Of a DNA stretch of 64,000 bases, positions 9,793-64,000 are shown in pieces. The stretch spans positions 8,396 through 72,395 of the forward strand of contig CANQST010000003.1 in NCBI GenBank assembly GCA_947626595.1. Reading direction: 5' to 3'. The position numbers were made by a program, and so were the translations under genes. Position 1 is the first letter of the stretch; each line of letters opens with the position of its first letter. Below the pieces are notes generated by a model. That model was not told the DNA's origin and made no database searches. It saw only the letters and a program-made list of their open reading frames with translations. The DNA comes from an uncultured Bacilli bacterium (GTDB lineage: Bacteria > Bacillota_I > Bacilli_A > RF39 > UBA660).

Positions 9793-9816
9793 TTCTAGTA
9801 GAAAGCAGGGGGAAAA

Positions 9817-10374
9817 ATGTTAAAACTAATTCATGCTAATGATATGAACTTTAATAGTGTAAAAAATTATTATGACAGCTTTACCGATAAATGGAAAGAT
9901 TTAAACTGTTATGCCATTTCTCATGCCCAGTATGGACCTAATGAGTATTTTGATTTCGTTAATACTTATGAAAATAATTTGTTCTATTTAGTAGACGAAG
10001 ATAAAGAAGACTATATCATTGGTTTTGGCACGATTGAAGATGCCAAAATTCTTGATTATCACAAGGACTATCTAAATGCAGGAAATATTGGCTACGGAAT
10101 AAGACCTAATGAAAGAAAAAAAGGTTATGGTACCATGCTTTTAAAACTTCTTTTATTAGAATGTGAAAAAATGGGTATGTATGAAGTATGCATATCTTGC
10201 TTAGAAGAAAATATTGGTTCTAAAAAAATAATTATCAATAATAATGGCCTTTTAGAAAAAGAATTCTTTGACGACGACAGTGGCCAATATGCCCTTAAGT
10301 TTTGGATAAAGCTCCATCCTAAAATCATAAATAGAACCAAAAGATTAGTGAAAAGACTTAGAGAAGATTATTAA
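9817..10374 (+). CDS. GNAT family N-acetyltransferase
   Basis: GYGIRPNERKKGYGTMLL acetyl-CoA binding motif (Q/RxxGxG/A-like). Confidence 0.8.
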   Translation: MLKLIHANDMNFNSVKNYYDSFTDKWKDLNCYAISHAQYGPNEYFDFVNTYENNLFYLVDEDKEDYIIGFGTIEDAKILDYHKDYLNAGNIGYGIRPNERKKGYGTMLLKLLLLECEKMGMYEVCISCLEENIGSKKIIINNNGLLEKEFFDDDSGQYALKFWIKLHPKIINRTKRLVKRLREDY

Positions 10375-10391
10375 TATGGGGGGGATATAAA

Positions 10392-10955
10392 ATGAATATA
10401 ACTAAAACTAAAAATGAGTATGATACTTTTAATATAAAGTTAGAAGACGAAAACAAAGTTCTATCAATAAATCAAGTCGGACAAGACTTAAATATTGCCT
10501 GCAAATACAATGATTACCGTAAATTATCAGACATTTCATTTTCTATTTCCATAGAAAATGAAGAGTTATACTTCCCATTTAATAAACTTTATAGTAATAT
10601 AGTAGATGGTAATATTCTTGGTGAAGACATATCTTTAGATAGAGTAAAACAAACAAGTAACCTCGAAAAAAACACTAACTTATATCAAAAAATCGTCCAA
10701 AATGAAGTAATTACCATACTTTCTGATACTACTCCCATAGATTATCCTAATATTTTAAGAATTATCAAAGAGGAAGATAAAATAATTTTAAAGTTTGAAA
10801 AAGTTGAAGCTCATTTTAGAAAAATTCCTTTCTACATACCTATAGATATACGTACATCAGGCTCAAGACTTTATGACTTTTCCATTCCCTTTAAAACCCT
10901 ATTTAAAGAACTACAAAATCTTAAAGATAAAGAAAAATACTTAGTAAAGAAGTGA
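10392..10955 (+). CDS. hypothetical protein; its RBS consists of a G7 homopolymer
   Basis: 187-aa ORF. The G7 tract at 10378-10384 sits immediately upstream of the ATG. Confidence 0.5.
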   Translation: MNITKTKNEYDTFNIKLEDENKVLSINQVGQDLNIACKYNDYRKLSDISFSISIENEELYFPFNKLYSNIVDGNILGEDISLDRVKQTSNLEKNTNLYQKIVQNEVITILSDTTPIDYPNILRIIKEEDKIILKFEKVEAHFRKIPFYIPIDIRTSGSRLYDFSIPFKTLFKELQNLKDKEKYLVKK

Positions 10956-11512: not shown

Positions 11513-14500
11513 ATGTTGAAATTAAGTAAAAAATATCTATTAATTCTTTTAGCTGGAGTAGTTTTCCTATTTAGTGGGAAAGTATCTGCTAAAGAAATAA
11601 TTTTACAAACCAATTCTAAAGAAGTGAACGTTGAAGATACTGTCACTTTAAATGTTTCTGTTGATAATGAAGATCAATCTTTATATGCCTTAAAAGCTAA
11701 ATTAAGTTATGATAAAGATGTTTTTGAAGTGCTAGAAGAAAAAGATTTTTCTGAAGAAATAGAAGACATTGTTTATAATGAACAAAATAATGAGTTTGTT
11801 ATTTTAAATAAAAAAGGTTCCAATGACAACTTATTTACAATTAATTTAAAAGTAAAGAAAGATGCTTTAAATGGTAAAACCACTTTAACATTAAGCAATT
11901 TAGAAGTATCAAATGGAACTGATAGCACTAAATATGATAAAAAAAGTGTTACTTTAAATGTTAAAGGTGGTAAAGATGTTACTGCTACAACTACTACCAA
12001 AAATAATAAAACTAAAAATGCTAAAAAGACTTTAAATGTTAAAAAGACACTATTAATTTCTGCTATAGCGCTCCTTATTTTAATGGCTTTAATTGCCTTT
12101 ATTAATTCTGATTACTTTGAAAAACTTAATCTAATAAAAAAAGAAAATAAAAATAAAGTATCTATTGTTATTGCGCTTATTATCATTTTAGCGGACATCA
12201 TTCTAATATCTTTATTAGGTTTTAATGCTGTTAATAAAGGTGATGTAGATAAAGATGGTAAAAAAGATTATAAAGATATACGTAAGATAAGTGAATATTT
12301 ACTTAATGTAACTAATGGTGGTAAAACATCTTCTAGTCTTAAAAATACTTTAAATTATTATAATGCTGACTACAATGGTGATGGTAAAGTTACTTTAGAC
12401 GATGTTGCCGCTCTAACTCAAGATGTAAATAATAAAACAGTTTATGAAGTAGAAGTAGCTAAAAGTTCTATAGAAAATTATTATCCTAGTAAAAACGGTA
12501 ACGTTGAAGTAAATCTATCATTTATTGTTAACCCTAGTGATAATATTTATGTTGAAAGTGTTTTTGCTAACGGCAAATACTATAAAGTAACTAAAGATAA
12601 TGATAATTATTATGCAAGTATAAAAGTTACTGATAAAGCTGGTATTAATGATATCGTTATTTCTAAAGTTAAACTAAGTAATGGTAAAGAAATAAATATT
12701 AAGCCATATACTTTAAAAGTTGATGTCTTAAAAGAAGCTCCTAGTATTAAAAACTTTGATTTTACTAATGAAGGAAAAGTATCTTTTGAACTTGTTGATA
12801 AAGATAATTCATTAGAAAAAGCTACTTTAGTAGTATTAAATAATGACGAAATAGTTACTACTAAAAAGGTAAAGAAAGATTTAAATACTTTCGAATTATC
12901 TTTAGAAAAAGGTATTAATTATACTATAAAAATACTTACTGATTATGACTTAGATAGTTCTAAAGATAATGATAAAAATGCCTTTACTGATAAATTAATT
13001 TATATGAAGCAAGTACAGCTATATGATGTTGGACTAAAACTAAATAGCGTAAGTAACAATTATCCACTTAAAGGAGAAAAAGTAACTGTTTATTTTACTG
13101 CTAGTAGTAATGTTCAAGAAGTACTTATTGATAATAAATACTATACTGTTACTAAGAATAATGATTTATATAGTTTTACTATAGATGCTCCAAATGAAGC
13201 TGGATTATCTAAATATCAAGTGACAGGTGTTATTCTAGATAGTGGTGAGTTTAGAACTAAGATGGACTTTAGTTTTGATGTCTTAAAAGATAAGCCAACT
13301 GTTAAAAATCTTATGTTTGACTACAATAGTCATACAATTACTTTCGATGTAGTTGATAAAGATAAATCTCTAAGTACTTTAAAATTACAAGTTATAAATA
13401 ATGAAACTAAAGAAGAAGCATTTACTAAAGACTTAGATACTGAAAAAAGTACTTTCTCATATAAAGCTGATTTAACTTTAGGCGCAACTTATTCCATTAA
13501 AATTACTGGAAATTATGACTTAGATAGTAAAAAAGGAAATGATAATTTCTATCAAGATTATTCTCTTTATAACCATGTTATTACTATTGATAAAGTTTCT
13601 ATTAAGAGTGTTACTGATTTAGATAATTTATTCCCTAAACAAAATGAAAATATTGAAGTAGCTCTTGATATTGATATCTATCCTACTAAAACAAAAGTTA
13701 CTAAAGTAGTTATTGATGGTAAAGAAACAGATGTTGTATATAAAGATGGTCATTATTATATAACTTTTAATGAAAAAACTTCTGGCATAAAGAAACATAC
13801 TATAAGTTCTATTATTCTTGAAAATAATACTGAAGTACCTACTAACTTTAATATTAAATTAGATGTTTTAAAGGAAAAACCAGCTGTTAAAAACTTTGCT
13901 TATTCAACTGCTAGTAAGACTATAAGTTTTACTTTAGAAGATAAAGATAAATCTATTAAGAATGCTAAGATAGTTGTTACTTCTAAAGAAAATGGTAAAA
14001 AAGTTTTAGAAGAAAAACTAGATTTAGCTAAGTCTTTATTTGAGCTTAAAATAGATTTAACTGAAAGTGCTAAATATGATGTTAATATTATAGCTAACTA
14101 TGATTTAGATAGTGATAGTACTAATAATAAAAATGAAATAGAAGAGAATTTATATACTTATCAATTAACTGTTTATGGAGTTAAATTAACTAGCGTTCAA
14201 GATACTTATTACGCTAAAAAGAATGAAGAAATAGAATTGAAGTTTAAAGCTGAAATTACTCCTGAAGATAATGGTAGTATTATAAGTGCCGTTACTATTG
14301 ATGGTAAAGTTTATGATGTAATTAGAAATATTGAAGGAACTTACAGCGTCTTTATAAAAGCAAAAGATACATCAGGAAATAAGAAATATACTATTACTAG
14401 CGCTACTGTTGGCGAAACTGAATATGCAACTAAACTAGGTTTTAATGTATATGTTTTAAAAGATAAACCTACTATAGAAGATTTATATATAGACGAAAGT

Positions 14501-17500
14501 AAAAGTGTACCAGTAATTACTTTTAACTTAAAAGATAATGACAGTGCTTTAGATAAAGGTTATGCTTATATTAAAGATGGATCAGGTAATGAAGTAGAAA
14601 AATTTACTCTTAAGAAAGGTAAGAATTCTATTGATTTAAAAGATATTGCCACTAACTTAAAAGATGGTGCGACTTACTACTTAGATGTTAAAGTTAATTA
14701 TGACTTAGACGATACTAAGAATAATAAGTATGAAACAGAAGAGTACCTTATAAATAATCATATCGTTAAAATATATAAAGTAAAATTATCTCTAGGAGAA
14801 AATAATCCTTACTACGTTAATAAAGACGAAGAAGTAAATATCAAAATAAATGCTACTGGTAAAGACTTAGATACTGTTAGAGTTAAGACATTTATTATTG
14901 ATAATAAAGAATATGAAGCTATTTATAATAATGGTAGTTACTATGTAAAAGTTAAAACTCCTACTACTTCTGGAATAAAGACATATAACATTACTAAAGT
15001 AGTTTTAACTAATGATATTGAAGTATCTTCAAGTTTAGAAATTAAACTAGATGTTCTAAAAGATACTCCTTATATAAATAAATTTAATCTTAATGAAGAA
15101 AATGGTTTAATTACCTTTGAACTTGTTGATAAAGATAAAGCTTTCCAAAATGGTGATGTATCTATTTCTAATGAAACAGGAAATTTAATTACTAAAGAAG
15201 TAAAAGAAAAGACTACAATTACCTACAAGTTCTTAGAAGATATGAATTATAATATTAAAATTACTGGTAATTATAATCTTGATAGTGATACTACTAATGA
15301 GGAAAATTTATATACTGATGTTGAAATGTTTAGTCATGACTTTCTTATTGGAGGTAATTATCAATTTACTTTAAATGATTTATCTATAACAGACTCTTTA
15401 ACTAAGAGTGAAAAACCTGTTGTATCATTCACAAGTTCTAATATGAAGAATGCTACTATTAAAGAAGTTGTTATTAATGGTAAAAAATATAATGTCTCTA
15501 AAGTAGATGGTAATTATTATGAAGTAATTCTTAATGATGCCCAAATGACATCAGGTAAACATAAAGTTGAATTAGAAAGTGTTACTCTAGATACTATGAA
15601 GACTTTTAAGAATAATTTAGACTTTTCTACTAATAGCTTAACTTATAGTGTTTTAAAAGATGCTCCAAGTATTAAGAATATTAATCTTACTAGTAATAAT
15701 ACTGATAAGACTATAACTGCTACTTTCAATCTAGAAGATAAAGATACTACTTTAACTAGATTAAAAGCCCTACTAGTTGACTCTGCTGATAAGATAATTG
15801 CTGAACAAGAATTAACTCCAGAGATGGTTTACTTATTTGATACTTCTAGTGTTACTTTATCTTACTTAGATAATGCTGATGGACATGTTGATGGTTATTA
15901 CAAAGTTAGATTTTTAGCGGACTACGATTTAGGAGAAGAAAAATATCTTTATAGTGATAAAAATGTTGGTGAAAAAGATATTTTAGTTCAAAAAGATTTA
16001 ATTTATATTAAAGATATTTATATTGCCGATAGTAGAGGTAATAAAATAGATAATTTATATCCAAGTAAAAAACAAAAGAATTATCAAGTTGTAGTAGATG
16101 TATATGTTGATAATAGTATTAATGATTATGCTAGAAGTAAATATGGTAATAGAGCTTATCAAAAAGTCTCTGTTGTAACTATTAATGGTGTTGATTATAG
16201 TGCCGATAAACTAAATGATTATAGGTCTAAAATTACTTTAGATGTCCCTGATACCTCAGGTATTCTTAACTTAACTGTTAATAGAGTTCAACTTGAATAT
16301 GCTGATTACAATGTTAGCTTTAGACAATTCTACTCTGTACCTGAAAAATCTATTAAGATAGATGTTTTAAAAGATACTCCTACTATTAAAAATTTAAGTA
16401 TTAAAGAAGACTATGCTAAAGCAAGCGCAACATTCGATTTTGATGTTGTCTTAGACGAAAAAGCTAAAGAAAAAGACGAAAGTTTCAAAAATGGTAGTAT
16501 TGCTCTAGGTGAACTTCGTCAAAATATAAATAGAGGTCATAATTCTATTACCTTTAATAATATTAAGAAAGACGAAAACTTAGATTTAGTCTTTGAAGGA
16601 AGCTATGATCTTGATACCGATACTTTAGAAACAACAGATCAAAATGAATATGAAAACAAAGAAATCTATAGAGTAAATTATGGTCTATATGATAAAGAAA
16701 CATATGAAGATATCAAAATAACAGATGGTCTATCTCTAAGTAAAAATAATAATAACTATTTTGAAAAGAATGAAGATATCAAATTAAACTTTAATGTAAC
16801 TGGCATCAAAGAAGAATTAGGCTTAGATGTTGAAAAAGTTATTATTAAAGATAAAGAATATCCTATAACTAAAAAAGATAAGTATGAAGTTACTTACGAT
16901 AGTTATAATACTTTTGGTCAAAAAGAAATTACTATTACTGGTGTTGTTCTAAGTAATGGTAAGAAAGTTGACTTAAAGAAACCTTATACTTTTAAACCAG
17001 AAATACTAAAAGATAATATCAGTTTAGATAATTATAAAGTAGAAGTTCAAAATAATAAGATTAAAATTACTTCTAACTTAAAAGATAGTGATAATTCTTT
17101 AATTAAAGCTAATATTAAAATAACTACTGAAAATGGTAAAGAACTAGTAAATAAACCATATGAAGAAGAAATTACTATTGATAAAGTTAAAGATGTTTTA
17201 AGATATTATGTTGAAGTATATGCAAGTTATGATAGAGATATTGATATTACTGAAGGAAGTTCTAACTATTATGAGACTAAATTACTAGAAGAAATAATTT
17301 CCTTTGAAGAAAATGTTATTGAACTTAAAGATATTACTGACATAAATTTATATAAAGCTGAAAAAGATAACTCTATAAATCTTTTAGATACTGTTAACGT
17401 TAATGATTTGGAGAAAAATTTAGATAACTACTTTATTGAAATTAATATGGAAAATGCTCCAAGTGTTCATGCTAATATTAAGAAAATAACTACTAAAGAT

Positions 17501-20500
17501 AATGAATTAATGTTAGTATTAGACTTTGATAATGTATCTAAAGAAAATGTTAAAGGAAAAGAGTTTAGTATCTTCTTTGGTAATATAGAAAATAATAAAG
17601 CTACTAATGAAACACATCCTGATGTTGCATTTAAGACATTATTAAAACGTCTTGAAAGTAATGAGGACATAGTCTTAAAACAAAACTATGATGCTAGTTT
17701 AATATCTGAAGACACTAAGTATTATGTTGATAATTATAGTGGAAAACTAGATGGAAATGGCTTTACTATTAAAAACCTAGAAAAACCATTATTTAATAAA
17801 TTAACTAATGCTAATATTAAGAATTTAATTTTAGAAAATGTTGTTCTAGATAGTAATGGTAGAGGTGCTTTAAGTAATGATGCATCTTCCACAACTGTGG
17901 AAAATGTTATAGTAAATCGTGTTACTAAGAAAAGTGCAAGTAATGGTCAAAATGGTGGTTTAATTGGAAATGTTAATACTCGTAGTACTATCAATTCTTG
18001 TGCCGTAAAAAATATTGACTTTAATATTGGCAATGCTCAACAAAATGGTGGTTTAGTTGGATATGCTGAAAACTCTACTATCAGTAATAGTTACGCTATT
18101 GGTAAAGTAAATGGTGGCTGGAACTTTAATGCTGGTTTTGTAGGTAATACTGCTAATACAACATTTACTAATAACTATTCTAAAGTAAGCGTTACTGGTT
18201 ATACTATCTGTGACTTTGCTTGTAGTTATCTAGGTCAATCAAGTTACCACAATAATATATCTTTAGGAGGTACTAATCGAGGTTTTGTAAATAAGTATAG
18301 TTCTATTTCTAATAACTACTACTTAGTTACTGATGGAAGTATAAGTACTAATAAAGACATTACTAATATCACAGCTGAACAAGTTAATACTAATCTATTT
18401 AAACAAGCTAAGTTTGATAGTAGTATATGGCGTTTAGATAACGTTACTTATGAAAATACTCCATTATTACAAACTGAAAAAATAACTTCTATGGATGAAA
18501 GTATTAATGGTTATGATAGTACTAAGACAATTCTTTATAATAACTTAATGAAATTAATGCCATATTACAGTAATGAAAAAATAATTACTATGGCTAAAAA
18601 CATCAAAGATAATTACTTAAATACTAAAGAAATTATGCATATCTTACCAGTTGATAAAAATGGTAATATTGTAACATACTTAACAAATGATAATGTTAAG
18701 AGAATTAGTAAAATAAAAGTAGTCTATAAAACTAAAGAAAAACAAGAATTTAATGTAACATATGATAATACATATGACTTTGTCGCAACTTATCGTATAG
18801 TTGATTTAAAAATTGATTATAACTACAAAAATTACATAATTGATAGTAATTCTCAAGTTGTAAATAACTTAACTAATTACTTGAAAAAATTAAATTATAC
18901 TGATAATTTAGATATCTTAACTTCTACTGGAGATAGTAGAATATATAGAGATTTCTATAATGAGACAACTGTTAATGAATTAAAAGAGTTTGTTCTATCT
19001 TATCTATCTAATAGTAATTATAATAATATAACTAATAATGATATTATAACTACTCATATTGAAAAAGAAGTAAAAGAAGATAAGAAAATAGAAAAGATAC
19101 TATATATGTATAACTACTTTAGACGTTTCTATGACTTAGATATTGATGGTATTAAGTTATATCAATTTATGCTATTTAATATGGATGGTTTTGATAGTAG
19201 TTTAACTCCAAAAAAGATTGCTAACTTATTCTTAAGTGATGGAACTAACTTCAATACTAATGAAACAAATACTAGATATCAAAAAATCTTTAGCAACTAT
19301 ACTAATCTAAATACTATATCTAAATTCTTAGAGTATATGGTTACTGAATTTAGTGATTTAGATATGGATAAATGGACTGCTTCACAATTTAAAGGATATC
19401 TAGCTGAAGTACCAGTAGATGGACATCCTGAAGTATTATATACTTTATGGGATCACTTTAGTAATGAAGATGCTACATACCATAACCCTTATCAAATATA
19501 TAACTATGTATTACCAATCTTAACTTTACCAAAAGATGCTGCCTACATTATATCTAGTCCTGTTCAATTTATAATAGGTGCCCAAAGGACTTATATAGTT
19601 GATCCAAGCAATGAAGAGGAACAAGCATTATTAAGAAGAAAAGTTAAGAGTTATACTGATAGAATGAGTAATTATTACAATACAGCTTATGGTTTCTTAC
19701 AAGATGCTAAAGTATTTAATGATATTCATACTTACCAATTAGATAAGCGTTATACTAAAGGCGCTAATGGAGAAACTATTTTCCATAACCCATATGTAAC
19801 AGAAGAACCATTCCACAAGAACTTAAATGAAGTAATGAACCAATGGGCATACAATGATTATAATGCCGCAACCGCTAATGGAACTCAGATAATTTGGCGT
19901 GTTGAAGGATTAATGGATGGTAACTTAATCCCTGAACTTGGTAATGTTCAAGAATATACATATCAGACTTGGTCACATGAGTCAGCACATAACGTTGATG
20001 CTAGATTATTCTTACGTAATAATGGTAGAAGATATGATGCTGGTGGAGAAGATTATGCTGATGGTAACTTAACTCAAAGTTTTGGTCAAAATGACATTGT
20101 TATGAACTTATCAGTTAATTATGATGCCGGTAGTAGAGTTGGTGCTAACCTTACATATGATAGAATTGCTTCACCTAGCAAAATTCATGATTTCTATCAA
20201 AAAGTTTTTGATACTATATATATAATGGATTATATAGAAGGAAAAGCTTTCTTAGAATTAAATGATAAAGAAAAATCAGGTGTAGCTGTTCAAGTTATGT
20301 ATCCAAATGAGAATTTAGAAGGAGAAGACAAAACCCATCTTAAATACAAATACACAGTATATCAGCATATAGACGAAGATAAGTATAAAGCTATGAAACT
20401 AAATTCTATTGAGGATCTATACAAAGAAAAATTAGTAATATTCCCTAATGTTTATTACTCAACCTATACTGATAATAGATACGGTGGCGAAGGTATAAAT

Positions 20501-28190: not shown

Positions 28191-30197
28191 ATGAATAGCA
28201 GAAAGCAAAAACTAATTATTATAGGTGCTTTATGTCTAGTTGTAACTTTATTGTCTATAGGTTATGCTGTTTTGTCAGCTAATTTAAGGATTAATGGTAC
28301 TGCTAAAGTATCAGGTGAAAAATGGAGCGTTGAGTTTGTAGAAAAGCAGGCAAAAACTATTCCAAAGGGAAAAGCTACTTGTGATATAGGTACAATTCAA
28401 AATACTTCAGTAACAAACCTATTAGCTAAAGTGAAAGTCCCAGGAGACAGTTGTACATTTACTATACCAGTAGAAAATACTGGAACTTTAGATGCCAGTT
28501 TAGTCGATGTTACTAATAAGGGTTTAGCTTTGTCATATAGTGGTGACCAAGGGGATATAGATATAATAAGTAGTTATATAACTTATGATGTAAGATATGG
28601 TAACACACAAATAAATAATGAAACTAATTTTGATAGTATAGATATACTAGAGCCAGGAGAAAGAGAGACTATAATTTTAAAAGTTGAGTTTAAAGAAGAA
28701 GCAACCCAGATACCAAATGAGGTAGTAACAATAACAGGATTAGATAGAACATTTAATTTTGAAAATAAGGTGGGTTCAAGTAGTACTAATCCAACACCAA
28801 ATACAACTCCAGTTTATCATGATGCCAGTGGAGCTAATCAACCAGTGTTAAATGGAGACATGATACCTGTAGTTTATGACGAAACAAGAAAAGAATGGGT
28901 AAAACAGGATTTAGATAAAAGTTATGACTATTCACAACAAGTATGGGCAAATGCTGTAACTGTAGTTGAAGATGGAACACAAACAAGAAGTTATTATAAG
29001 AAAGCCAAAGCCGGAACTGTTATATCAATGAGTGATATAAATACAATGTGGGTATGGATACCAAGATATTCATATACAATAAAGAGTGAAGATGGTGGAG
29101 AAAACTATTTTGGTAAAGCAAGTTCTGATAATGAAAGCCCAACTAAAGCATTACCAGGAGAAATAGATGTTAAGTTTATTTCAACAAGTCAAAATGACAG
29201 TGATGGTTCAGCAAAATATACAGAAAGTCAACCAAGCAACTGGAGAACGAATGATGCCTTTACTTTTGGAGACAAAATATTATCAGGTATATGGGTAGCT
29301 AAGTTTGAAACTACAGGTAGTTTATCTGAAGACCAACAGGCTTGTATTGATTTGAATTGTGATATAAGTAAAATAACGATAAAGCCAAATGTTTCTTCAG
29401 TAAGAAATCAAAGGATAAGCAGTTTCTTCTATATGGCAAGAAGTATGCAGAAAGAAAATAATCCATATGGTTTTAATAGTGAAAGCGGAGACTTGCATAT
29501 GTCAAAAAATAATGAATGGGGAGCAGTTGCATATTTAAGTCAAAGCAAATATGGTAAGTATGGTAATGGAGATTATAGTGGAGCAAATAAAGAAGTTTAT
29601 ATGAATAATAGTAGTGACTATATAACTGGAAACAGTAGTGGTACACCTGATGCTACTGAAATTAAGGGCGTTCTTCATGAATATAATGATATGAATAGCT
29701 TTTCAGGTGTTGGTGCAAGTACTACTGGAACAATATATGGAATATATGATATGAGTGGAGGATCAACTGAATATGTAATGGGAGGATTTGAGTATGATGC
29801 TCAAGGAAGTAATGAACATGCTGGACAAATATCTGTAGCTTCTTCGGGATTTAAAGGTTTAAGTGCTACTATACCACCTGCTGAAACTGGAACAATAAGT
29901 ATGCCAGAAAAGAAATATTACAATGTCTATAAAACAGCCACACCAACTTCTAGCATATGGTCTACAGCAAAGCCTGAACTTGCATGTAATTCAAACATTT
30001 GCTATGGACATGCTTTGTCGGAAACAGCTGAATGGTATGGAGACTACGCTTTGTTTGGTATACGATCATATCCATGGTTTAGACGTGGAGGAACGTACAA
30101 TAGTAGTCCAGTTGGTGGCTTGTTTCTAGCACATCCATATAGTGGAAATTATAATGAAACAATTTCAACTCGTTTAGTTCTAACACCTAACAATTAA
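28191..30197 (+). CDS. paralog B: signal-anchored secreted protein, TasA/camelysin-like N-terminal domain and FGE-sulfatase (SUMF1-like) C-terminal domain
   Basis: N-terminus LSANLRINGTAKVSGEKW...PGDSCTFTIPVENTGTLDASLVDV (cf. SipW-cognate/TasA leaders). C-terminus has NNEWGAVAYLSQSKYG (cf. FGE LPTEAEWEYAARGG), GIYDMSGGSTEYVMG (cf. GLYDMSGNVWEW) and a terminal RLVL. Start placed at the ATG at 28191 after the GGTAGGTGA SD. Confidence 0.85.
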   Translation: MNSRKQKLIIIGALCLVVTLLSIGYAVLSANLRINGTAKVSGEKWSVEFVEKQAKTIPKGKATCDIGTIQNTSVTNLLAKVKVPGDSCTFTIPVENTGTLDASLVDVTNKGLALSYSGDQGDIDIISSYITYDVRYGNTQINNETNFDSIDILEPGERETIILKVEFKEEATQIPNEVVTITGLDRTFNFENKVGSSSTNPTPNTTPVYHDASGANQPVLNGDMIPVVYDETRKEWVKQDLDKSYDYSQQVWANAVTVVEDGTQTRSYYKKAKAGTVISMSDINTMWVWIPRYSYTIKSEDGGENYFGKASSDNESPTKALPGEIDVKFISTSQNDSDGSAKYTESQPSNWRTNDAFTFGDKILSGIWVAKFETTGSLSEDQQACIDLNCDISKITIKPNVSSVRNQRISSFFYMARSMQKENNPYGFNSESGDLHMSKNNEWGAVAYLSQSKYGKYGNGDYSGANKEVYMNNSSDYITGNSSGTPDATEIKGVLHEYNDMNSFSGVGASTTGTIYGIYDMSGGSTEYVMGGFEYDAQGSNEHAGQISVASSGFKGLSATIPPAETGTISMPEKKYYNVYKTATPTSSIWSTAKPELACNSNICYGHALSETAEWYGDYALFGIRSYPWFRRGGTYNSSPVGGLFLAHPYSGNYNETISTRLVLTPNN

Positions 30198-58961: not shown

Positions 58962-59315
58962 TTATTTTTGTATATAACTTTTATTTATCTTAATAAAGTT
59001 AATAATCTTATTTAATTCTTTATCAGTTAATTCTTCTTCTTTATTCATATAACCATTTTTTACTAATAATTTCTTTAGTACTTCTTTTTCTTTTAAATTA
59101 TCTTCAATAACTTTAAGCTTTTTTTCATTACCCAATAAGTAATCAATAGATACTTGAAAAAAATTAGCTATCTTAATTAACATTTCATAATCCGGTGTAG
59201 TTCTATTTATTTCCCAACCACTTATAGTTTGCATTGTAACACCTAACTCAGCTGCTAACTCTTTTTGATACATATTCTTCTTTTCTCTTAGTTCTTTTAA
59301 TCTATTTCCAAACAT
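58962..59315 (-). CDS. XRE/SinR-like HTH regulator with a C-terminal extension; divergent from paralog C
   Basis: QKELAAELGVTMQTISGWE HTH_3. The C-terminal about 50 aa are conserved with the regulator at 60947. Confidence 0.8.
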   Translation of the reverse strand: MFGNRLKELREKKNMYQKELAAELGVTMQTISGWEINRTTPDYEMLIKIANFFQVSIDYLLGNEKKLKVIEDNLKEKEVLKKLLVKNGYMNKEEELTDKELNKIINFIKINKSYIQK

Positions 59316-59451: not shown

Positions 59452-60900
59452 ATGAAAAAATATGTAATTGGTTTTATTATTGGAATATTATTAACAGGAA
59501 CTATAACTTACGCAGTAGGTTCAGTAATAGAAAGTAAAAGTGTTTTATATAATAGAACTATAAGTGGAGGAAGTTCAGATAATGTACAAGGATCAATAGA
59601 CGAGTTATATAAAATGAGTGGAGTAAGTACAACTCCATATAAGGAAGAAATTTTAAACGGAGCGGACCCAGTATTGGGTGATGGAATGATACCAGTAACT
59701 TTAGATAAAAAAGGAAAAGTAAAGTATGCAAATCTAAATACACAGTGGTATTGTTATGAAGAAAAGAAATGGGCCAATGCAGTAATACTTAAACAAAGTC
59801 CAAGCAAAAGTTATAAAACAGGAGATATAATCTCAGAAGACGATATTGAGAGTTATTTTGTATGGGTTCCAAGATTTAAATATAAAGTATGGAACACATC
59901 AAGTGCTGATGGTTACCAGCAAAATTTAGCTAATACGCAAAATTCAGCAAATTCTATTTGGCATATTACTGGTTCAGCACGATTAATAGATGTAGAATTT
60001 GAAGATAAGAGTGCAACGGCTTCAAGTGGTACTTACTTGACCCATCCTGCATTTACTACCTTTGGAGTAAGTGGTTTGTGGTTTGCTAAGTTTGAAACGA
60101 GTGGAACCACAGGCGCAATAACAGTAAAACCAAATGTTACTTCTTTAAGAGGTACAACAGTTGGTGATTTTTGGCATGCCTTCTATAATTATAGAAATGT
60201 TAATGGTGAACATAATCCTAATTTAGATCCACATATGATAAAAAATACTGAATGGGGTGCAGCTGCATACTTATCTCATTCAGCATATGGAATAGGAACT
60301 GAAATAAATATAAATAATAATCAAAATTATTTGACAGGTTATTCAGCTGCGGCAAATACAGACCAAAGTTCTTATACTGGAACATATGGAACTAAAACAG
60401 TTACCGATAATGATGGACCAGCAGTGACAAAACCCTATAATACACCAATTGGCTATTTAGCATCAACAACAGGAAATATCACAGGAATATATGATATGTC
60501 AGGTGGAGCACATGAGTATGTTGCTGGTTACTTAGATCCTTATGGTGTTACTAGTAGTGGTGGCGTTGCAAGTGGTTTGAAAGTTACTGATTTAGCTAAA
60601 GAACAATACTTTGATAAATATTCAGGAGCTACAACTGGGTCGTCTTACAGTAAAAGAATTTTAGGAGATGCAACAGGCGAACTCGGCCCTTTCTATTACT
60701 ACATGGAGAAGAATGGCTCTAATTATTCTCACAATGGTTGGTACGCTGATGGTTCGGACTTTGTAGAGCCCAGGTACTCGTGGTTCGGCCGAGGCGGTCC
60801 ATACGATGATGGCGTCTTGGCAGGTCAGTTTCACTTCCATAGGTTTACCGGAGAGGCCTTTGGTTATCTTGGTTCACGTTTGGTTTTAGCAGTCAAGTAA
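59452..60900 (+). CDS. paralog C: signal-anchored FGE-sulfatase-like domain protein
   Basis: MKKYVIGFIIGILLTG TM anchor. NTEWGAAAYLSHSAYG, GIYDMSGGAHEYVAGY and a terminal GSRLVLAVK. GGTGA SD before the ATG at 59452. Confidence 0.85.
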   Translation: MKKYVIGFIIGILLTGTITYAVGSVIESKSVLYNRTISGGSSDNVQGSIDELYKMSGVSTTPYKEEILNGADPVLGDGMIPVTLDKKGKVKYANLNTQWYCYEEKKWANAVILKQSPSKSYKTGDIISEDDIESYFVWVPRFKYKVWNTSSADGYQQNLANTQNSANSIWHITGSARLIDVEFEDKSATASSGTYLTHPAFTTFGVSGLWFAKFETSGTTGAITVKPNVTSLRGTTVGDFWHAFYNYRNVNGEHNPNLDPHMIKNTEWGAAAYLSHSAYGIGTEININNNQNYLTGYSAAANTDQSSYTGTYGTKTVTDNDGPAVTKPYNTPIGYLASTTGNITGIYDMSGGAHEYVAGYLDPYGVTSSGGVASGLKVTDLAKEQYFDKYSGATTGSSYSKRILGDATGELGPFYYYMEKNGSNYSHNGWYADGSDFVEPRYSWFGRGGPYDDGVLAGQFHFHRFTGEAFGYLGSRLVLAVK

Positions 60901-60946: not shown

Positions 60947-61333
60947 TTATCTATTTTTCATAATATATTTTCTATTATTCTTAATAAAATCCATTATGCT
61001 TTTTAACTCCTCATTTGATAAATTTTCTTCTTTGCTCATATAACCATTTTCTACTAATGTATCTTTTAACACTTGCTTTATATTTAATTGCTTTTCATTC
61101 TTATTTGATTTAGTCTCTCTACCAAGTAGAAAGTCAGTAGAAACATTTAAAAAGTCAGCAATCCTAACAAGCGTTTCAAAATCAGGCCTTGTTATATTTT
61201 GACACCATCTATTAACTGCTTGTTGAGTTAAATTTAAATGTTTTGCTAATTCGATTTGTTTAATCTCACCACTATCAAGTGCAAATTTTAATCGTTCACT
61301 AAACATTACAATCACCTCTAACTTGCTTAACAT
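60947..61333 (-). CDS. XRE/SinR-like HTH regulator; divergent from paralog D
   Basis: QIELAKHLNLTQQAVNRWC HTH. C-terminal domain homologous to 58962-59315. Confidence 0.8.
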   Translation of the reverse strand: MLSKLEVIVMFSERLKFALDSGEIKQIELAKHLNLTQQAVNRWCQNITRPDFETLVRIADFLNVSTDFLLGRETKSNKNEKQLNIKQVLKDTLVENGYMSKEENLSNEELKSIMDFIKNNRKYIMKNR

Positions 61334-61389: not shown

Positions 61390-61418
61390 TTGACATAAAC
61401 AGTTTGTTGTTTTATAAT
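61390..61418 (+). promoter_or_regulatory. consensus sigma-A promoter TTGACA-17-TATAAT facing paralog D
   Basis: ttgacataaacagtttgttgttttataat. The -35 region is homologous to the promoter at 63109. Confidence 0.55.
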
Positions 61419-61580: not shown

Positions 61581-63050
61581 ATGAAAAAATATATAATTGG
61601 TTTTATTATTGGAATATTATTAACAGGAACTATAACTTACGCAGTAGGTTCAGTAATAGAAAGTAAAAGTGTTTTATATAATAGAACTATAAGTGGAGGA
61701 AGTTCAGATAATGTACAAGGATCAATAGACGAGTTATATAAAATGAGTGGAGTAAGTACTATTCCATATAAGGAAGAAATTTTAAATGGAGCAGACCCAG
61801 TATTGGGTGATGGAATGATACCAGTAAGTTTAGATAAAAAAGGAAAAGTAAAATATGCAAATTTAAACACAGAATGGTATTGTTATGAAGAAAAGAAATG
61901 GGCCAATGCAGTAATACTTAAGAGTAATCCAAGCAAAAGTTATAAAACAGGAGATATAATATCAGAAGACGATATTGAGAGTTATTTTGTATGGGTTCCA
62001 AGATTTAAATACAAACTCTGGAACTTAGCTACTGAAGATGGTTATCTAGATTTAAGTCAATCAGAAAATCTTAGTGTTGAAACAGTTAGAGAAACATATG
62101 GAAAAGCAAAATTGATAGATATAGTGTTTGAGGATAAAGATATACAGCCATCAACTACTGAAAAAGTTGACTTATATTATACCCATCCAGCCTTTACCAC
62201 TTTTGGAGTAAGTGGTTTATGGATAGGAAAATTCGAAATAGGTGGAGATGCAAGTAATGCAGTAGTAAAACCAAATATGTCGTCTTGGAGAAATGCTAGT
62301 GTTGGAATATTTTGGAAAAACCTATATAATTATAAAAACAATGGTGGCTCTCATAATACTAATTTAGATCCTCATATGATAAAGAATACAGAGTGGAGAG
62401 CAGTTGCATATTTATCTCATTCAGCATATGGAATAGGAAAGGAAATAAATATAAATAATAGTCAAAGTCATTTAACTGGATATTCAGCGGCTGCAAATAC
62501 AGATCAAAGTTCTTATGAGGGAACTTATGGAACTAAAGAAGTTAATGATAATGATGGACCAGCTGTAACACAACCATATAATACCTCAACTGGTTATCTA
62601 GCATCAACAACAGGAAACATAACAGGAATATATGATATGTCAGGTGGCGCAATTGAATATGTTTCAGGTTATCTTGACCTTTATGGTGTTAAAAGTGGTG
62701 GAGGTGTTGCAAGCGGACTAACTCAAGAAGAACTAGATAACTATTCTAAATATTTTGATAAATATTTAGGTGATAAAGATACACAATTGTCTTCTTATAG
62801 TAAAAGAATACTTGGTGATGCAATAGGAGAAATGGGTCCTTTCTACTATTATAAAGATAAAGATGGATATGTTCGTAGTCACAATGGTTGGTACGCTGAT
62901 AGTTCGTCATTTGTAAATTCCACCTATCCATGGTTTATTCGAAGTGGTAATTATAACTATGGTATTTTGGTAGGTCAGTTTAATTTCGATAGAGATACTG
63001 GAGGTGCACTTAGCTATATTAGTTCCCGCTTAGTTCTTGCAGTAAAATAA
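61581..63050 (+). CDS. paralog D: signal-anchored FGE-sulfatase-like domain protein
   Basis: About 75% identical to paralog C at the N-terminus and over the FGE motifs (NTEWRAVAYLSHSAYG, GIYDMSGGAIEYVSGY). Confidence 0.85.
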   Translation: MKKYIIGFIIGILLTGTITYAVGSVIESKSVLYNRTISGGSSDNVQGSIDELYKMSGVSTIPYKEEILNGADPVLGDGMIPVSLDKKGKVKYANLNTEWYCYEEKKWANAVILKSNPSKSYKTGDIISEDDIESYFVWVPRFKYKLWNLATEDGYLDLSQSENLSVETVRETYGKAKLIDIVFEDKDIQPSTTEKVDLYYTHPAFTTFGVSGLWIGKFEIGGDASNAVVKPNMSSWRNASVGIFWKNLYNYKNNGGSHNTNLDPHMIKNTEWRAVAYLSHSAYGIGKEININNSQSHLTGYSAAANTDQSSYEGTYGTKEVNDNDGPAVTQPYNTSTGYLASTTGNITGIYDMSGGAIEYVSGYLDLYGVKSGGGVASGLTQEELDNYSKYFDKYLGDKDTQLSSYSKRILGDAIGEMGPFYYYKDKDGYVRSHNGWYADSSSFVNSTYPWFIRSGNYNYGILVGQFNFDRDTGGALSYISSRLVLAVK

Positions 63051-63108
63051 AACAATAAATTTTGATATATTTGTGCATAAAAAGTTGAAAAACTTTTTTT
63101 CTTTCCAC

Positions 63109-63139
63109 TTGACATAACCCTAGGGGGGGGGGGTATACT
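63109..63139 (+). promoter_or_regulatory. promoter TTGACA-(19 nt containing G11)-TATACT upstream of paralog E; candidate phase-variable promoter
   Basis: cttgacataaccctagggggggggggtatact. The G11 homopolymer at 63123-63133 sits in the spacer. The spacer is 19 nt as assembled and would be 17 nt with two fewer G. Confidence 0.55.
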
Positions 63140-63174
63140 ATACTTATAAAAAAATAAAAAGCTGTGGAAAGAAA

Positions 63175-64000
63175 GTGAAAAGAATAGTGAAGAAATCAAA
63201 AATAGATAGAAAACTATTATTAGGAATTATTCTAGGAATAATGATTTCTACTGTTTTAACATGCACTTTTGTTTATGCAGTAGGTTCAGTAATAGAAAGT
63301 AAAAGTGTTTTGTATAATAGAACTATAAGTGGAGGTAGTTCAGATAATGTACAAGGTTCAATAGACGAACTATATAAAATGAGTGGAGTAAGTACAACTC
63401 TATATAAAGAAGAAATTTTAAACGGAGCAGACCCAGTATTAGGAAAAGACATGATACCAGTAACCTTAGATGGAGATGGAACAGTTAAGTATGCTAATTT
63501 AAATACACCTTGGTATAAATATGCAGAGAAAAGATGGGCCAATGCAGTAATTTTAGTAGGCAATCCAAGTAAAAACTATAAAACAGGAGATATTATTTTA
63601 GAAAAGGATATAGAAAGTTATTTTGTTTGGGTTCCAAGATTTAAATATAAAATATGGGACTTAGGAAATTATACATCTGCTTATTCTTTATCACAATTAA
63701 AAGATAATGCAGATAAAACAGAAACTAATTTGGATGCGTTTAGACATATTACTAGTAATGCAAGAATAATAGATATAGTATTTGAAAATAAAAACACTAC
63801 TCCATCGACTACAGTAGCATTAAATTCGTATTATACCCATCCAGCTTTTATAGCTTTTGATGTGAATGGTTTATGGATTGGAAAATTTGAAACAGGTTAT
63901 AATCAAGGAATTGTTGGTAAGCCAATAGAAGACACTTTAAGCTGGACACCTCAAAGTGCTCAGCAAAATATCATTTCTAGTGATCATATTATAGTGAAGC
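63175..64000 (+). CDS. paralog E of the FGE-like family (3'-truncated by the window end; GTG start)
   Basis: The frame reads VKRIVKKSKIDRKLLLGIILGIMISTVLTCTFVYAVGSVIESKSVLYNRTISGGSSDNVQGSIDELYKMSGV..., colinear with C and D. Open to base 64000. Confidence 0.75.
   Translation, partial: MKRIVKKSKIDRKLLLGIILGIMISTVLTCTFVYAVGSVIESKSVLYNRTISGGSSDNVQGSIDELYKMSGVSTTLYKEEILNGADPVLGKDMIPVTLDGDGTVKYANLNTPWYKYAEKRWANAVILVGNPSKNYKTGDIILEKDIESYFVWVPRFKYKIWDLGNYTSAYSLSQLKDNADKTETNLDAFRHITSNARIIDIVFENKNTTPSTTVALNSYYTHPAFIAFDVNGLWIGKFETGYNQGIVGKPIEDTLSWTPQSAQQNIISSDHIIVK

Follow-up and report, generated by a model that had tools for sequence, protein, structure and literature searches.

What is an uninterrupted run of eleven G's doing in the promoter of a gene from an AT-rich genome? 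The question is raised by a 64 kb stretch of DNA from an uncultured member of the Bacilli (hereafter the window), in which such a run occupies part of the spacer, directly against the -10 hexamer, of the promoter predicted for gene E, a putative surface-protein gene. Judged from the sequence, we consider it rather probable that the tract is a slippage-driven phase or level switch of E. It would be a simple-sequence contingency element in the spacer of a sigma-70-type promoter, and E would be a signal-anchored surface protein from a large multigene family of uncultured gut Bacilli (formerly labelled 'Tenericutes'). Slipped-strand mispairing during replication would add or remove G's, their number would shift the distance between -35 and -10, and transcription of E would move between near-off and high in a heritable but reversible manner; the assembled G11, with its spacer of 19 nt, would represent a low or off state. 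The observations from which this argument starts are the anatomy of the promoter, the polymorphism of the tract, its conservation throughout the clade together with its enrichment before surface-protein genes, and a second simple-sequence switch in the same family. From these we infer that the promoter is active here and that its activity depends on spacing, as well as which length is the ON state and at what rate it would switch.

Anatomy of the predicted E promoter

The elements of the promoter and its surroundings are listed in Table 1. A sequence-only reading of the window had placed the G11 tract within the -35/-10 spacer of E, at a spacing of 19 nt, and had called it the only long G-run in the 64 kb; both descriptions are borne out. 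The next-longest G/C run is a single G7 (10378-10384), followed by G5/C5, and a first-order Markov model leads one to expect about 1.4e-4 runs of at least 11 G's in the window; the tract is thus a real feature and not a chance one. The GC content, which the same reading had put at about 25%, is 28.2%. Slipped-strand mispairing is associated with pure G/C homopolymers of about 8 or more, a range that includes G11. The lone G7 lies 7 nt upstream of the start codon of an ORF (10392-10955), and one G5 (9808-9812) lies 4 nt upstream of that of another (9817-10374); both occupy Shine-Dalgarno positions, not promoters.

Table 1. Features between gene D and gene E, with positions in the window.
Feature	Position	Strand	Remarks
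Gene D, upstream paralog	61581..63050	+	3' end lies ahead of the E promoter
Weak AT-rich hairpin and T-run after D	63079..63102	+	possible leaky terminator between D and the E promoter
-35 hexamer TTGACA	63109..63114	+	6/6 consensus; other species have CTTGAC(A/T) at this place in homologous cassettes
Non-repeat part of spacer, taacccta	63115..63122	+	8-9 nt here in homologous cassettes
G11 homopolymer	63123..63133	+	predicted mutable element; total spacer 63115-63133, 19 nt as assembled
-10 hexamer TATACT	63134..63139	+	5/6 consensus; adjoins the tract
Second -10-like TATACT	63139..63144	+	overlaps the first, 5 nt downstream
Short leader	63145..63174	+	Shine-Dalgarno-like element GTGGAAAG (63164-63171); leader and GTG start kept in the L005 cassette
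Gene E, 5' part, 275 codons	63175..64000	+	GTG start; basic N-terminus, hydrophobic anchor/signal peptide, then body of the C/D/E family; open to the window end

The first -10 hexamer lies 36 nt upstream of the GTG codon, with a leader of about 35 nt, and the tandem arrangement of two -10 elements (TATnnTATAAT) is found in most related poly-G promoters. Together with the initial GGG of the tract, CCCTAGGG in the non-repeat stretch of the spacer makes up an 8-bp palindrome. A generic promoter scan is uninformative here, consensus matches in this AT-rich region not being enriched over shuffles; it takes only spacers of 16-18 nt, and the E promoter is therefore absent from its output. Rfam covariance models searched against 62800-63500 gave no match at E <= 1. 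An intramolecular G-quadruplex, which would call for four G-runs forming at least two tetrads, was considered and rejected: there is a single tract and no flanking G-runs, and the G8 of most homologous promoters is too short. Also rejected was an Illumina poly-G artefact of contig ends, the tract being internal both in the window and in a second, near-identical contig (L001), and conserved across independent studies.

Gene E, its paralogs and the region upstream

Three paralogs stand in tandem: C (59452-60900), D and, after a gap of 124 nt, E as the third. Protein identity is 74% between C and D and 67-69% between E and either of them, the latter from about residue 27-29 onward; at the DNA level the similarity of E to C and D starts only at 63273, within the coding region, so that the promoter, leader and signal-anchor of E constitute a different 5' module. 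Divergent XRE-family HTH genes precede C (58962-59315) and D (60947-61333), both on the minus strand, and none stands before E; of the 80 related loci described below, just 3 contain homologues of these regulators. Further relatives, more distant, are A and B, at 26191-30197. Paralog A is split, its two ORFs (26191-27213 and 27286-28158) aligning jointly with the single, 674-aa paralog B (28173-30197), and is either a pseudogene or the result of a frameshift or assembly error. The window also contains an ORF of 3178 codons (11513-21049).

The basic N-terminus of E, followed by a hydrophobic anchor or signal peptide, predicts that the protein is surface-exposed. Other sequence-level features of paralogous surface-protein families accompany the anchored N-terminus, namely several family copies per genome and gene-conversion-like patches. 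Pfam and NCBIfam gave no confident assignment for C, D and E, four of 12 family members have weak FGE-sulfatase-like matches, a PDB search yielded one weak match (5vf4), and the AlphaFold model of D is poor (pLDDT 46). Full-length E was not found in the protein database, where its best match is 76% identical. The C/D/E-family proteins have no evident lipobox; the genetic code of the organism is 11, and it has murein genes.

The sequence-only reading had further held that a homologous promoter of D carries an ordinary 17-nt spacer at the same place. TTGACA and TATAAT separated by 17 nt are indeed present upstream of D (61390-61418), but about 160 nt from its ATG, beside the divergent HTH gene, and they have only TTGACATAA in common with the E promoter, which belongs to the part of E without similarity to C and D. 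As the D promoter lies elsewhere and shares so little, an argument from it for a switch at E fails.

The hairpin after D has an 8-bp stem (AAAAAGUU/AACUUUUU), a GAAA loop and a following U7, and the whole 60 nt after D fold with -6 kcal/mol (z = -0.9). Since the hairpin is weak, transcription of E by read-through from D is possible.

Tract length in near-identical assemblies

An exact-protein look-up of D retrieved three ENA metagenome contigs (L001, L002 and L003) from one project, with identities to the window of 99.7%, 99.87% and 100% over 4.75, 4.56 and 3.33 kb. The tract, G11 and internal in the window, is G10 in L001, which ends 198 nt past it (window 63331), G12 in L002, which ends 4 nt past it, and at least G11 in L003, which ends inside it. 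Look-ups of both HTH neighbours gave the same contigs, so that there are four observations of this tract in total; neither the C protein nor P0006 had a record. No GTDB species representative contained an exact 20-mer match to the E promoter, from which it follows that the species is not among these representatives.

The G tract is the only indel across the shared sequence (about 4.5 kb), despite the presence of A7 and T7 runs there. Apart from it, the window differs from L001/L002 solely by substitutions in gene C, grouped in two tight clusters (59676-59697 and 59793-59805), the first of which turns GDGMIPV into GKDMIPV, as in E; these clusters suggest gene conversion from paralogs. The lengths of the tract are suggestive of a polymorphism between near-identical strains, read at consensus level from four low-coverage assemblies of one project (about 8x, according to the contig names), in which long G runs are error-prone.

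The same low coverage would favour a technical explanation, by which the tract is genuine but static, and G10, G11 and G12, like the contig breaks, stem from homopolymer miscalls, PCR slippage in the library or low coverage. Such artefacts do exist: contigs of the VOFC01 assembly, discussed below, show systematically short G runs and altered A runs. Set against this are the clean alignment around the tract, where even the A7 and T7 runs are unchanged, the three different consensus lengths among four assemblies, and an (AT)n repeat of a sister paralog, which also differs between the same samples while nothing else does over 1.58 kb. We regard a purely technical origin as improbable.

Poly-G promoters in related gut Bacilli

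When GTDB species representatives were searched with a profile, 80 loci emerged, comprising 570 kb at 28% GC, all from MAGs of uncultured gut 'Bacilli' or 'Tenericutes' (rabbit, human and mouse), many of them with multiple copies; the highest protein identity to D among the 80 is 56%. These loci contain 30 G-runs of at least 8, where 0.8 are expected, although the 30 are partly paralogous copies and hence not all independent. The distribution of run lengths is bimodal (eight G6, two G7, 23 G8, two G9, four G10 and one G11). With the loci oriented so that the family gene lies on the plus strand, the longest C-run is 5; all G tracts are on the coding strand.

Counting the window together with the MAG loci, 26 of the 31 tracts of at least 8 G's are directly followed by TAT and 28 by TAnnnT, and a TTGAC, TTGAA or TTGAT motif lies at most 25 nt upstream of 28. 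An ORF with a basic and then hydrophobic N-terminus begins 26-163 nt downstream of 28 of the 30 MAG tracts, the other two standing at contig ends; in most cases 26-41 nt separate tract and start codon. Eighteen of these 28 ORFs encode family members and the rest other anchored proteins, one of them prepilin-like. In L041 a G10 tract stands before a prepilin-like gene. Within the family, about 15-20 of 84 copies have such a tract. The full cassette, CTTGAC(A/T)-N8/9-G10/11-TATNNT, is kept in three species, that of the window and two others, and in the closest of these (L005) it also retains the leader and GTG start of the window cassette.

These regularities bear on the possibility that most expression of E comes from transcripts running through from D, or from some other promoter, in which case the match to TTGACA...TATACT would be due to chance and the length of the tract would be without consequence. 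The weakness of the hairpin between the two genes agrees with this, as does the frequency of consensus promoter matches in the region, which does not rise above that in shuffles. We nevertheless consider it very improbable: a perfect TTGACA and a -10 with five of six consensus positions are conserved with the tract and leader across species, the interval from tract to start is stereotyped over dozens of genes, and several such cassettes follow genes from outside the family or stand alone.

Two further arrangements were noted in the course of these comparisons. In L032, L037 and L040 a perfect 14-bp palindrome, TTGACAATTGTCAA, lies just upstream of G8-TATAGT (for example at L037 3700-3745); a possible reading is an operator that overlaps the -35 region. 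A pattern scan also returned unrelated environmental contigs (L137, L153, L155, L164, L165, L177 and L200; L092, L115 and L183), in which inverted repeats of C5-8 and G5-6 (such as CCCCCCC-TAAA-GGGGGG) directly precede TATTATATAAT; theirs is a different, hairpin-type layout.

Spacer lengths and promoters with G8 tracts

The poly-G promoters follow two layouts. In type i the order is -35, N8-9, Gn, -10; it is seen in the window, L005 and L043/L068, with spacers of 19, 19, 19, 19 and 20 nt, and in L001 and L002, with spacers of 18 and 20 nt. In type ii the -35 is followed by N2-3, G8-9, five bases and TATAAT, giving spacers of 15-17 nt. For the window promoter, G12, G11, G10, G9 and G8 correspond to spacers of 20, 19, 18, 17 and 16 nt, respectively. 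The statement of the earlier reading that a loss of two G's would produce the optimal 17 nt is therefore arithmetically right, but none of the type i spacers in the window, L001, L002, L005 and L043/L068 is as short as 17 nt, all of them measuring 18-20 nt. Selection may favour 19 nt as such, or else the genes concerned may be silent.

The commonest promoter of this kind in the human gut, class 7, has the form TTGAAAATC-Gn-TATTATAAAATAAA (TTGAAAATC-Gn-TATTAT), and a scan of gut metagenomes found 53 copies of it. Pure tracts are G8 in 35 copies, G7 in three, G9 in one and G6 in four; 10 further copies are interrupted, including rare variants such as gaggaGGGGG and gtGGGGG. All the G6 tracts and one G7 come from a single assembly, VOFC01, which has altered A-runs as well; its short G tracts are therefore probably homopolymer errors of long reads, and its G5-G7 alleles were rejected as evidence of variation, the altered A-runs lying in the same contigs. 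Outside VOFC01 the class is about 90% G8 at consensus level (35 of 39 pure tracts), and only three pure tracts other than G8 come from short-read assemblies. A SigB-type reading of the GGGTAT at the end of the tract (GTTTAA-N12-15-GGGTAT) was rejected for the window and for class 7 alike, neither having GTTT at that distance and both having TTGAC-type motifs instead.

That G8 is nearly invariant at consensus level and G10-12 variable fits slippage that depends on length, yet it leaves room for another view, namely that the G tract is a fixed cis-element, a structural spacer or the site of a regulator, with a canonical length of about 8, and that the G11 of the window is an expanded, probably silent copy drifting neutrally. 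The predominance of G8, in 23 of the 30 MAG tracts as in class 7, speaks for such an element, and so does the position of the tract, fixed directly against TAT while the distance of the -35-like motif varies (10-12 or 19-21 nt); the long-tract copies, moreover, all have 19-20 nt in three species. It is hard to see, on the other hand, how recognition by a protein could by itself account for a pure run of 8-11 G's in DNA of 28% GC, and no candidate regulator was identified. Interrupted variants are rare, as expected under selection for purity (that is, for mutability), length varies exactly where tracts are longest, and the family uses another simple-sequence repeat as an ON/OFF switch. Weighing these points, we think a fixed element rather unlikely.

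Other simple-sequence repeats in the family and clade

The second repeat in question is (AT)n, which sits in the 5' coding region of an N-terminal cassette ('MNKLKNR..NIYIYI'). It is best seen in paralog G, whose variants come from the same population and family as E. On one contig (L211) the repeat is (AT)8A and the gene is in frame, encoding 488 aa (MNKLKNRHNIYIYI...); on three others (L208-L210) it is (AT)9A and the gene is frameshifted, gene callers starting at an internal Met to give 462 aa. The four contigs, which carry the repeat at 59-77, are otherwise 100% identical over 1.58 kb. Paralog F is put out of frame by the same repeat (L084 5910-5928), and in the window (AT)11 occurs at 26019-26041, in an ORF of 70 codons (25982-26194) that runs at its end into the ATG of paralog A. 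The repeat looks like a translational ON/OFF switch. Ahead of it in the window, tuf is followed by a T12 run (25810-25821) and then by a conserved segment, ctggctctctagccagtagttcctaactaag... (25830-25900), which recurs upstream of paralog F (L084 5700-5790) and belongs to an upstream module that the (AT)n cassettes share.

A third kind of repeat is found in another species of the clade, where TTGACT-(TA)11-TATAAT, with a spacer of 17 nt, precedes a prepilin-like gene (L019 8575-8612; MKKVKNKGFTLMELI...). Taken together, the (AT)n repeats and the (TA)11 spacer make control of surface genes by simple-sequence repeats a recurring theme in the clade.

For the original proposal, that the G tract is a candidate phase-variation switch, the outcome is partial support: the polymorphism in length, the enrichment across the clade and the repeat polymorphism of a sister paralog strengthen it, while the lack of any 16-17-nt allele, the near-fixation of the G8 class and the loss of the argument from D weaken it.

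Relation to known promoter-spacer switches

The switch proposed for E has precedents. In porA of Neisseria meningitidis a G tract lies in the spacer of a sigma-70-type promoter, where its length sets the distance between -35 and -10 and hence expression (summarised in PMC7864442). The likeness to E consists in the homopolymeric G tract within the sigma-70-type spacer of a surface-protein gene; porA, however, is a single gene of a Gram-negative pathogen and its switch is experimentally proven, whereas the present one, predicted from sequence, belongs to a multigene family of uncultured low-GC gut Bacilli, adjoins the -10 and has been observed only with over-long spacers. In Treponema pallidum, poly-G tracts of about 7-12 occur in the promoters of tp0126, tprE/G/J, tprF/I and tprL, which encode paralogous putative surface proteins; 8 or fewer G's are permissive in tprE/G/J, and in tp0126 the tract lies between -35 and -10, with an optimum of 17 nt (PMC7864442). 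Individual strains contain tracts of varying length (PMC7864442); reporter assays and fragment-length analysis demonstrated the effects. The modal G8 and the longer, variable G10-12 of the present loci recall this pattern; the differences are that T. pallidum is a spirochaete with a genome of 53% GC, that neither genes nor promoters are homologous, and that the proteins here are unrelated to Tpr.

Repeats of other kinds occur in promoter spacers of the Mollicutes: poly(A) in vlp of Mycoplasma hyorhinis and (TA)n in Vmm of M. mycoides and Vmc of M. capricolum. These are low-GC, wall-less relatives of the Bacilli, with a simple-sequence repeat between -35 and -10 and families of surface (lipo)proteins, and a (TA)11 spacer is present in the clade studied here as well (L019, above). 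They differ in that their repeats are of A or TA and their proteins lipoproteins with a lipobox, whereas here the repeat is G, a lipobox is not evident, the code is 11 and murein genes are present. In Campylobacter jejuni, with about 30% GC, G-run lengths are bimodal and tracts of G8-G12 are tied to surface-structure genes. The AT-rich genome, the bimodal distribution, the range of G8-G12 and the association with surface structures are all shared, but the tracts of C. jejuni are mostly intragenic and act by frameshift, while those described here lie in promoters, strictly on the coding strand and upstream of the -10. By its layout, the poly-G tract of E is probably a switch of the porA and tp0126 type, and so of a kind already known; in the literature on uncultured gut Bacilli and RF39 we found no description of such a switch.

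Possible contingency loci in a commensal lineage

Low-GC Bacilli with small genomes are common in the gut metagenomes of humans, mice and rabbits and are known only as MAGs. The conserved design of the poly-G promoters, the polymorphism in tract length and the (AT)n switch point to contingency loci in a commensal lineage. Tentatively, and as something possible rather than probable, we propose a contingency system spanning the clade, in which a portable 5' cassette, made up of a promoter with G8-G12 in its spacer, a short leader and a signal-anchor coding region, would have been shuffled before many genes for surface and pilin-like proteins and, with the (AT)n and (TA)n repeats, would give a phase-variable surface repertoire on a par with that known from specialised pathogens. 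If true, this would be undescribed for the lineage and would, in addition, lead systematically to fragmented MAGs.

The fragmentation itself is observed. Contigs break off repeatedly at the G tract or in the near-identical N-terminal coding repeat of the paralogs, as seen in the ends of L001-L003 and the starts of L208-L211; these loci systematically fragment assemblies, and the poly-G and repeat loci explain both the assembly breaks at these genes and the N-termini truncated by gene callers.
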